From NCBI RefSeq assembly GCF_057098645.1, contig NZ_CM169472.1: DNA of 64,000 nt; one strand, written 5' to 3'. This document shows positions 57,904 to 60,144 of this stretch, piece by piece (positions within the stretch are counted from its first letter, which is position 1; every line of letters starts with the position of its first letter). The notes under the pieces were generated by a model. That model made no database searches and was not told where the DNA came from. It worked only from the letters and a program-made list of their open reading frames with translations. The translations under genes and the position numbers were made by a program.

Positions 57904-58194
57904 TCACTTACCAATTAATCTCACAGGAAATCCAACTTCCTTACCACAAATACAATCCCAAGTAACACCTCCCAAAATTTTTGATACTTTAGGCTGCAAT
58001 GGCATTATTGACATTATAAATTTATCAAGTTCTTCGCTATATTTAATTCCCTTTATATTTCTTATTATTGATATTCTAGCAGTAAAGATAGCCGTCTCTC
58101 CATCTACACTAAAAGTGTAATTACAATTTTTTGTAATCTCATCAAATTCAACCGATAACAAATCAATATTATGGTTTGTAAACACTATGCCCAT
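57904..58194 (-). CDS. Hypothetical 96 aa protein, candidate immunity protein for the upstream peptidase domain
   Basis: ATG start overlaps the last 26 nt of the peptidase-domain ORF (toxin-immunity-like coupling). Confidence 0.45.
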   Translation of the reverse strand: MGIVFTNHNIDLLSVEFDEITKNCNYTFSVDGETAIFTARISIIRNIKGIKYSEELDKFIMSIMPLQPKVSKILGGVTWDCICGKEVGFPVRLIGK

Positions 58195-58540
58195 TCCATA
58201 CCTCCTTAAATTCCTGTTCAGTCATCAGATATCGACTCCCTTGATATGGATCATATATTATCACATTCCCAGCATCATCAACACCCTTAACAAGTACCCA
58301 ATGCCCTACTTTACTTCCAGAATCCCATATCATTGCTCCCCATGAACCAGTATTACTGAGGGCATATAAACTAGATTCGCTCACTGCATTCCCTTCCCAG
58401 CCGACATCAAATTTATTAAGCTTGTTTGCCAGCGACGTCATAGATGTTAATTCTGTTCCAATTACATTTTGCGTGACAAAAATATACCTATCCCTAAGCA
58501 ACATTTCCCCACAGGCCGCTCCACAGCCTGTTAAAGTCAA
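58169..58540 (-). CDS. C39-like papain-fold cysteine peptidase domain ORF; no ATG (frame open from 58672, only in-frame start is TTG at 58540); candidate T6SS effector domain or fragment
   Basis: Cys...His...Asp triad in C39 arrangement: GCGAACGEMLL, then VGHWVLV about 74 residues later, then YDP 17 residues after that. Confidence 0.5.
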   Translation of the reverse strand: MTLTGCGAACGEMLLRDRYIFVTQNVIGTELTSMTSLANKLNKFDVGWEGNAVSESSLYALSNTGSWGAMIWDSGSKVGHWVLVKGVDDAGNVIIYDPYQGSRYLMTEQEFKEVWNGHSVYKP

Positions 58541-58620
58541 TTGCTTTATTACATTTGAATCTAAAACCTCATCAAATACTGTCCAATTGCCACCAGCACC
58601 ACCTTCTAAAACTACCGGCT

Positions 58621-60144
58621 CTACAAATACTTTCCCAGAGATATTTTCTTCTGGTATTTTTGCGGGTATCCATTACTGGTGGCGTCTTCAAACCGCAGCT
58701 CGTTAAATCCGCTTCCTTTATAGGTTTTTGACCGGATGGTCATCTGCGTCTTCGTTCCCGGCAGGTCGCCCGGCGAACGGTTGTCCTCATGGTAGGTCCG
58801 CCCCATGATTATCGGCTGGTCCGGGTCGCCGTTCAGAAAATCAACAATCACCTCCTGGCCCACCCGCGGTATCGCCAGGTTACCGAACCCCGGCCCCGCC
58901 CACGCCTGCGACACCCGCACCCAGCATGAACTCGCCTCCGTCATCCCGTGATAACGGTCCCAGTGGAACTTCACCCGTACCCGGCCATGCTCGTCGCAGA
59001 AAATCTCTTCTCCCGCAGGCCCGGTGACAATGGCGCTCTGTGGCCCGTCCACCTTCGGTTTGTTTTGCAGCCGTGGACGCCACGTCCGGTCCGCCGGTAT
59101 CACCTCTAACTGATTTCCCAGCGTGGTTCCCTTTCCCTGGCTGCCGTGCAGCGCCTGCGGCTGGCTTCCTGACAGTATGCTCTGTACCACCTGCCATTCA
59201 CGGTTCAGCATCTTCTGCGGATGCCTCGTCAGCGTAAACCGCGTTCCCGGCCACAGCCTCGGCGAATTACTCTGCCCTGTGGCCTTTTCCGCATCACTGC
59301 GCAGGCTGTCCATCTGGTACAGCGTGAAATCCTTGCCGTGCTGCTCGTCCTTGAACCTTCCCGGATAATCAAATATCTCATACTGCGCCAGCTGTCCGTT
59401 CAGGTTCTCACCCTGCTGCTCATACATCCCCGGCCAGTCCGGCACCTTAAACGTGTAATCCTGGCTCTGTACCGACGACGGGCGGACATACGCCTCATAA
59501 CGGAACATACTGACACACTCTGTCTCCGCTCCTGCCGATGTGTCCGGGTTAAACGGAAACTCCCCCGCCTGTGACAGCCCCGCCACATCGTCGCACAGCG
59601 TCAGCTTCTGCTCCGGACTGTCCGCCGCAAACCGCTCAAAGAAGAAAATCCCCTCCTCCGCCCACAGCCGCGCCAGAAACGCCAGGTCGCTCTCACCGTA
59701 CTGGACACAGAACTCCCGCGCCGGATGGTCTTCATAAAACAGCGGAGTCCACTCCGTGACGCCGTTCTCGTTCAGTAACGTGGCCGATACCGTCCGGATA
59801 TCCTGCTGCTGGAAGATACGGAAGTTCTGCCGCAGCCCGCACCGCCATAACGGCGGCTCAATACGCAGGTGATAACGCATCTGCCAGCCATTGTTCTCCT
59901 GCATGCCAAAGCCCGCCACCACGCCGGTAACATAACGCAGCGGGATGACGCCCTGCCAGATGGTCAGCGTCGCCTTCTTCTCCAGCAGCATCCCCGCCGT
60001 CTGCATAAAAGAGTCGCTGGCAACATCCACACTCATCACAAACGGATATGACTGGTTCTGGATTAACCTGAAATTCGCCACTGCAAAGGTGTCCGGCTCC
60101 TGGCCGTCAATCTCCAGCGTAAAGCGCAGACCTTTTAAGGACAT
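58621..60144 (-). CDS. vgrG: VgrG-like T6SS spike protein, truncated after the OB-fold (lacks the C-terminal beta-helix)
   Basis: 507 aa; gp27-like and gp5 OB-fold regions present; frame stops 19 codons after GC-rich VgrG-like sequence gives way to AT-rich DNA. Confidence 0.8.
   Translation of the reverse strand: MSLKGLRFTLEIDGQEPDTFAVANFRLIQNQSYPFVMSVDVASDSFMQTAGMLLEKKATLTIWQGVIPLRYVTGVVAGFGMQENNGWQMRYHLRIEPPLWRCGLRQNFRIFQQQDIRTVSATLLNENGVTEWTPLFYEDHPAREFCVQYGESDLAFLARLWAEEGIFFFERFAADSPEQKLTLCDDVAGLSQAGEFPFNPDTSAGAETECVSMFRYEAYVRPSSVQSQDYTFKVPDWPGMYEQQGENLNGQLAQYEIFDYPGRFKDEQHGKDFTLYQMDSLRSDAEKATGQSNSPRLWPGTRFTLTRHPQKMLNREWQVVQSILSGSQPQALHGSQGKGTTLGNQLEVIPADRTWRPRLQNKPKVDGPQSAIVTGPAGEEIFCDEHGRVRVKFHWDRYHGMTEASSCWVRVSQAWAGPGFGNLAIPRVGQEVIVDFLNGDPDQPIIMGRTYHEDNRSPGDLPGTKTQMTIRSKTYKGSGFNELRFEDATSNGYPQKYQKKISLGKYL

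Follow-up and report, generated by a model that had tools for sequence, protein, structure and literature searches.

The window analysed here is a stretch of 64,000 nucleotides from contig NZ_CM169472.1 (assembly GCF_057098645.1). The region under study is part of an E. coli chromosome of the O145:H28 type and is 100% identical to many O145 genomes, such as that of RM9872 (NZ_CP028379.1; window position equals record position minus 1,835,782). It lies in a variable island between yncG and pptA, at the position of rhsE in K-12, that houses what remains of the effector gene cpe1 together with its immunity gene, cpi1. On the minus strand, the order of the island is a PAAR gene, a vgrG truncated at its 3′ end, the cpe1 frame, a 96-aa ORF, a broken M35 metallopeptidase module, an ISAs1/ISEc1 remnant and pptA (Table 1). 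The tail of a second vgrG, found downstream of the 96-aa ORF, overlaps the start of the next effector gene, that of the M35 peptidase (ATG at 57716).

Table 1. Features of the yncG-pptA island in window coordinates.
Feature	Position	Strand	Evidence
PAAR protein gene, intact, 94 aa, head of the island	60163-60447	-	NF033420, E 9.8e-47, full length
Truncated vgrG/tssI, 507 codons	58621-60144	-	TIGR03361, E 1.5e-164 over residues 8-489
Deletion junction vgrG/cpe1	58670-58671	-	Homology end points and base-by-base alignment
cpe1 3′ remnant, nt 939-1437 of the 1440-nt gene, Cpe1 residues 314-479	58172-58670	-	9L5U chain A, S88 DNA, PF03412
cpi1, intact, 96 aa	57904-58194	-	96/96 identical to 9L5U chain C
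Native 3′ flank of cpi1, 142 bp	57762-57903	-	S88 cpe1-cpi1 homology stops at 57762
Tail of a second, long-type vgrG, 56 bp	57706-57761	-	Match to the GN25 vgrG 3′ end (L005 11667-12027)

The open frame that follows vgrG (58672-58172, 167 codons) is delimited by a TAA at 58675-58673 and another at 58171-58169. The original prediction had recognized in it a papain-fold peptidase domain of the C39 type and had proposed an HMM search to verify this. The search returned the Pfam family Peptidase_C39 (PF03412, E 4.5e-7), with nearly the whole model covered. Furthermore, a sequence search of the PDB matched the frame to chain A of 9L5U, the toxin domain of Cpe1 (Cpe1tox), with an E of 1e-95 and identity at 142 of 143 positions, far beyond chance. 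At the DNA level the remnant is 99.8% identical to cpe1 of E. coli S88 from nt 939 on. Residue i of the frame was numbered as Cpe1 residue 312+i, and all six published exosite residues (L387, M390, A408, M426, W428 and V434) fit under this numbering. The nucleophile is the first Cys of the GCGAAC motif, C362 (58525-58523), as mapped onto both Cpe1 and the related toxin StbD-CT, and the triad is completed by H436 (58303-58301) and D453 (58252-58250). The spacing is that originally described, with 74 residues from Cys to His and 17 from His to Asp, and the three residues are homologous to C183, H258 and D275 of StbD-CT, which have been validated by mutation. Ahead of the complete C39 peptidase toxin domain the remnant retains 24 linker residues (72 nt). 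According to the alignment, the predicted autoprocessing site between Gly337 and Ala338 is kept (58600-58595), and the sole amino-acid change in the toxin domain is M427I.

None of the NCBIfam HMMs matched the toxin fragment, Cpi1, full-length Cpe1, DUF2169 or the M35 module. Hence, the names that PGAP gives to cpe1 and cpi1 come from a source other than those HMMs; both genes are already annotated by RefSeq in several genomes.

No ATG or GTG precedes C362 in the cpe1 frame. The only start codon of the ATG, GTG or TTG type upstream of this residue is a TTG at 58540 (L357, five codons before C362), which yields a 123-aa ORF. No Shine-Dalgarno (SD) sequence is found in the stretch ahead of it (AATGTAATAAAGCAA), and the product initiated there would be devoid of residues 338-356 of the crystallised domain and of the first 5 match positions of the Pfam C39 model. 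Promoter-like hexamers are present at 58585-58558, upstream of the TTG. A promoter and terminator scan of positions 57700-61000 counted 10 promoter-like sites for 6.1 +/- 2.6 in shuffled sequences, that is, no enrichment. The original prediction was right on the coordinates of the frame, on the stops that flank it, on the TTG and on the 26 nt that the frame shares with the 96-aa ORF. The statement that the frame contains no ATG is nevertheless incorrect, since ATGs are found from position 58504 (M369) onwards, after the catalytic Cys. It is from M369 that PGAP calls a 111-aa 'C39 domain-containing protein', from which the nucleophile Cys is absent.

The N-terminal PAAR-like loading domain (PF13665/DUF4150) of Cpe1 is also missing, and no complete, translatable cpe1 gene follows a vgrG and a DUF2169 adaptor gene here. 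As the PAAR-like domain, the adaptor gene and a complete VgrG are all lacking, the fragment would not be exported even if it were made. With neither ATG nor GTG, no SD before C362 and no means of delivery, the toxin fragment is most likely a dead remnant, that is, a silent pseudogene fragment, or else unexportable if made.

The 96-aa ORF had been proposed to be an immunity gene, which is borne out by the identity of its product with Cpi1 (chain C of 9L5U) at every residue. This product is WP_000513317.1, the same RefSeq protein as that of the annotated cpi1 in S88, and the interface residues I47, M61, M64 and K72 are all kept. An SD sequence, AAGGAGG, is located at 58207-58201, with a spacing of 6 nt to the ATG at 58194. 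The ORF and its near-consensus SD are intact in all three sequence variants of the locus that bears the deletion junction (O145, ECNB21-M121 and 33F4), and the Cpi1 of 33F4 carries a G76N change. An identical protein was tested in ATCC 11775, BL21 and MG1655 and neutralises Cpe1 (PMC12136450). Since cpi1 is intact and has a strong SD, it is a plausible orphan immunity gene, provided that it is transcribed.

The position of the lesion in cpe1 was found by aligning the junction against intact loci, as the original prediction had suggested. The vgrG sequence stops at 58671 (nt 1473), and cpe1 takes over at 58670 with nt 939, which is the last base of codon 313. Base-by-base alignment of the junction sequence, AGTAATG/GATACCCGC, shows that it is blunt and without microhomology. 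At this point the two genes are fused out of frame, with cpe1 read in the -1 frame with respect to vgrG. Residues 1-491 of the truncated VgrG are genuine and its last 16 codons run out of frame through cpe1 to a TAG at 58623-58621. The protein is without the C-terminal beta-helix region (the full VgrGs of loci L003 and L004 have 654-661 aa), and PGAP labels the gene 'missing C-terminus'. The cpe1 frame, for its part, opens after a TAA built from vgrG sequence. It does therefore begin directly after a stop, as had been noted, but this stop sits at the deletion junction where the residual vgrG ends, rather than within an intact vgrG 3′ end.

In S88 the intact locus is composed of hcp, vgrG, a DUF2169 adaptor gene, cpe1 (479 aa), cpi1 and ISAs1. 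Compared with this layout, about 2.6 kb are missing from the window, comprising vgrG from nt 1474, the DUF2169 adaptor gene and cpe1 codons 1-313. The toxin domain had been thought to be displaced from its carrier by a frameshift or by recombination. Recombination is indeed at the origin of its being out of frame with the truncated vgrG, whereas a frameshift is not, the lesion being a deletion. Nor was VgrG the former carrier. The Pfam domains of S88 Cpe1 are Tox-PAAR-like (PF13665, residues 15-115) and C39 (residues 352-474), and the real carrier is this N-terminal PAAR-like domain of Cpe1 itself, which is encoded by a separate gene after vgrG and DUF2169.

The 909-bp cpe1′-cpi1 segment differs from that of S88 at two positions, a synonymous one at P331 and the one responsible for M427I. 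A toxin frame that is still open and has a single amino-acid change implies either that the deletion is recent or that the frame has been retained. Strain PapM-32-1 carries full-length cpe1-cpi1 at the same yncG-pptA locus. It is collinear with positions 58670-55300 of the window (98.5% over 3.4 kb), including the vgrG tail, the M35 gene, the ISEc1 remnant and pptA. This arrangement rules out two other histories. In the first, the 909-bp segment would have been inserted within one GN25-type vgrG, leaving vgrG sequence on both sides; PapM-32-1 has the full-length pair with the same tail and M35 module. In the second, the boundary at 57762/57761 would be another lineage-specific breakpoint; it is common to PapM-32-1 and hence ancestral, so that only the junction at 58671/58670 killed cpe1 here. 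PapM-32-1 has a deletion of its own, which starts at about nt 245 of vgrG, stops 167 bp before cpe1 and affects vgrG and DUF2169, and GN02050 has an IS3 insertion and a nonsense codon (E321*) in cpe1. These different lesions show that decay of the module is recurrent. SCU-485 was set aside as a further decayed copy, since so many of its genes are frameshifted that the assembly is probably noisy.

At megablast sensitivity, cpe1tox-cpi1 was found in single copy in 332 of 5,426 complete E. coli genomes. The exact deletion junction is present in 31 of the 5,426, which are O145:H28/NM strains, ECNB21-M121, three Swiss calf/farm isolates and a few others. Since there is one cpe1tox place per positive genome, the junction-bearing genomes have cpi1 but no intact cpe1; no second copy of cpe1 was detected in them at this sensitivity. 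In RM9872, the aspV-yafV site, where S88 has its T6SS core cluster, contains only an hcp gene and fragments. A literature search on the T6SS of O145:H28 yielded nothing. The broken M35 effector and the empty aspV core locus of RM9872 are consistent with a decaying T6SS armoury.

A papain-fold effector of this type had been considered an unusual cargo, yet it is already published, with a crystal structure, and is present in the genomes counted above. Cpe1 is a T6SS effector and papain-like cysteine protease whose substrates are GyrB and ParE (Song et al., PLoS Biol 2025, PMC12136450). In the ATPase domains of both, it cuts a GG motif between its two glycines, which blocks DNA topology control and chromosome segregation, and its toxicity is abolished by C362A (PMC12136450). 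The structure of Cpe1tox with Cpi1 (9L5U, from E. coli ATCC 11775) places the immunity protein on a hydrophobic substrate-binding exosite and not on the active site (PMC12136450). The same 479-aa protein had already been described in 2023, from ExPEC RS218 and under the name Tsap, with a PAAR region, a middle part and C39 at bp 1041-1437 (PMC10434152). StbD-CT autoprocesses after a linker diglycine (between G158 and A159), a site that Cpe1 shares, and the middle domain of Cpe1 is homologous to a YajC-dependent entry domain (bioRxiv 10.64898/2026.05.07.723447).

Altogether, we consider that the region is a remnant of the known cpe1 gene followed by intact cpi1, a decayed T6SS effector-immunity pair, with a probability of about 0.85. 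The locus is an ordinary decayed toxin-immunity locus and no new kind of effector: family, structure, targets, immunity mechanism and the link to T6SS and CDI have all been published. The precursor at the yncG-pptA island would have consisted of PAAR, vgrG, DUF2169 adaptor, cpe1, cpi1 and the M35 effector module. One illegitimate deletion would then have joined vgrG to cpe1 out of frame at the bases given above. Neither vgrG nor the adaptor gene survived it, and cpe1 lost codons 1-313, and with these the PAAR-like loading domain and a putative cytoplasm-entry domain. The surviving fragment still encodes the whole C39 peptidase domain that, in intact Cpe1, cleaves GyrB and ParE at Gly-Gly. If transcribed from the PAAR-vgrG promoter region, cpi1 would shield the cell from injected Cpe1, with Cpi1 binding the substrate-recognition surface of the toxin coming from Cpe1-armed E. 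coli.

It is possible, if doubtful, that the whole segment, including cpi1, is a functionless relic of a recent deletion that is intact only for lack of time. With only two of the 909 bp differing from intact S88, conservation is uninformative on selection, and the deletion is indeed too recent for conservation to decide on the function of cpi1. A relic would also be in keeping with the decay of the adjoining M35 module, the loss of the aspV T6SS locus in RM9872 and the reported silencing of E. coli T6SS islands by H-NS, Cpe1 donors having required a Δhns background (PMC12136450). On the other hand, the cpi1 ORF and its SD have stayed intact in all three variants of the locus; in O145, frameshifts have arisen in the M35 gene, 190 bp further on. 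A cpi1 that is at least potentially functional is hence favoured over a silent relic by roughly two to one.

It is far less credible that low-level synthesis of the truncated toxin persists, started at the TTG at 58540 or brought about by -1 slippage from vgrG′, and that the toxin forms with Cpi1 a domesticated, intracellular addiction pair of the toxin-antitoxin type that acts on gyrase and topo IV and stabilises the island. The frame does contain the complete catalytic domain with its triad, it is -1 to vgrG′ across a 50-nt overlap containing CAAAAAT, and cpi1 overlaps the end of the toxin as in the native pair. However, the canonical X XXY YYZ heptamer is absent from the vgrG frame (58672-58624), the TTG has no SD and gives the shortened domain described above, promoter-like sites are not enriched, and PGAP calls only the Cys-less 111-aa ORF. 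In a milder version of this idea, cpi1 alone would be maintained in O145:H28, where the aspV T6SS locus is empty, as an acquired defence against Cpe1-armed B2 E. coli. Least probable of all is that the pair serves as a recombination reservoir, an orphan toxin-immunity module that could be re-attached to a full-length effector gene in the manner of Rhs/CdiA orphan CTs. Its layout and its place downstream of T6SS spike genes recall such modules. However, megablast located a single cpe1-like place per genome, which leaves the junction-bearing genomes without a recombination partner; what precedes the fragment is vgrG sequence rather than a conserved effector core, and just 72 nt of linker lie ahead of the toxin domain.

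The significance of a cpe1 remnant with intact cpi1 extends little beyond annotation. It explains the odd 111-aa RefSeq protein that has a C39 domain without the catalytic Cys, gives the name cpi1 to an ORF that has gone unnamed in O145:H28 genomes, and records one of the deletions through which a T6SS effector island has decayed. Expression of cpi1, if it occurs, would make O145:H28 strains that produce Shiga toxin immune to a toxin that cleaves gyrase and is carried by many extraintestinal pathogenic E. coli, which would be a small point on gut competition.

The closest known system is Cpe1/Cpi1 itself, with which the window shares the catalytic residues C362, H436 and D453, the exosite residues and the overlap between both genes. 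It differs from it by the absence of residues 1-313 (the PAAR-like and middle domains), of a usable start and of the DUF2169 gene, by M427I, and by the out-of-frame junction of the fragment with a truncated vgrG. A further related system is StbD-CT/StbI of Citrobacter rodentium (CdiA-like; PDB 8SSK and 8SSM). The linker and peptidase are homologous (E 1.7e-55), the autoprocessing motif (GG/AGGNW, with the slash marking the cut) and the Cys/His/Asp triad are common to both, and GyrB and ParE are the targets according to the preprint. StbI is distantly related to Cpi1 (E 6e-9). In contrast to Cpe1, StbD-CT has a CDI/CdiA-like carrier rather than a T6SS one, and its sequence has clearly diverged.

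The C39 domains of ABC transporters such as ComA, LahT and CvaB are a different case. Intact Cpe1 consists of PAAR-like and C39 domains only, with no transporter, and no ABC transporter gene was found near the remnant. Furthermore, the substrate of these domains is a leader peptide, whereas that of Cpe1 is the ATPase domain of a topoisomerase, and Cpe1, unlike them, acts as a toxin and has an immunity protein of its own. Orphan toxin-immunity modules, as found at Rhs and CdiA loci, and orphan immunity genes in general are similar to the present locus in that a 5′-truncated toxin, without start codon or delivery domain, is followed by an intact immunity gene. Yet the remnant in the window results from an internal deletion of a functional locus, and not from displacement downstream of a full-length paralogue. 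Indeed, a full-length paralogue sharing upstream sequence is absent, with a single cpe1tox place in all 332 positive genomes. Finally, an evolved VgrG does not describe this locus either: the toxin frame is -1 to vgrG, and at intact loci cpe1 stands on its own as the second gene after vgrG.

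Downstream of cpi1, the window carries the remains of a second effector module (see table). The gene for an M35-family metallopeptidase effector overlaps by 11 nt, at its start, the tail of a long-type vgrG. This tail is what remains of an earlier vgrG-M35 module, to which the cpe1-cpi1 module became attached. In other strains (L002, which is 33F4, and L004), tandem PAAR-vgrG-effector modules are set apart by copies related to the ISAs1/ISEc1 remnant that borders pptA here.

Table. Features of the window around cpi1 and the M35 module
Feature	Coordinates	Strand	Remarks
ISAs1/ISEc1 (H-repeat) transposase remnant	55557-56011	minus	lacks N-terminus; adjoins pptA
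Putative immunity gene following the M35 effector	56084-56678	minus	counterpart L002 9928-10719
M35-family metallopeptidase effector gene	56925-57716	minus	next after cpi1; HEMSH zinc motif
56-bp tail of long-type vgrG	57706-57761	minus	801-aa type, GN25-like
'Cysteine peptidase family C39 domain-containing protein'	58169-58504	minus	WP_000926703.1, 111 aa; RefSeq/PGAP

Comparison with 33F4 (L002 9084-9875) and ECNB21-M121 (L009 7985-8776), in which the M35 gene is intact and encodes 263 aa, showed that in the window its reading frame is disrupted where poly-A runs have each lost one base, at 57281, 57195 and 56965. The putative immunity gene that follows it, also of 263 aa in 33F4, is split in the window. 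The otherwise near-identical sequence of O145 strain RM9872 differs from the window by only two substitutions and three 1-nt changes in the length of A homopolymers (at 57195, 56890 and 56672). Because these length differences could reflect either real slipped-strand variation or sequencing error, the frameshifts of this AT-rich module (30% GC) should be read with caution.

Lesions of the cpe1-cpi1 module were also found in other strains. PapM-32-1 has a deletion running from vgrG to the DUF2169 gene (L011 7657-8063) with cpe1 still intact. GN02050 (L008 3081-5025) carries an IS3 insertion together with an E321* stop in cpe1. The module was thus inactivated independently in each of these strains, and cpi1 is intact in both.

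At the aspV-yafV site, S88 harbours the T6SS core cluster together with its native cpe1-cpi1. In RM9872 (NZ_CP028379.1 241395-244383, outside the window) nothing is present there beyond an hcp gene, one hypothetical gene and a fragment of a gene, so that the PAAR-vgrG island of the window may have no secretion apparatus to serve at that locus.

The C39 protein annotated in the window begins at M369 of Cpe1 and lacks the catalytic Cys, and in most genomes RefSeq/PGAP labels cpi1 merely as 'hypothetical protein'. Both calls are annotation artefacts, and correcting them is worthwhile.

Base composition changes abruptly at the junction, from 59% GC in the vgrG remnant (58671-60144) to 36% in the cpe1-cpi1 segment (57762-58670), the M35 module being lower still and the window averaging 49%. 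A step of this kind is characteristic of effector cassettes that are exchanged horizontally downstream of a vgrG core which itself is conserved.
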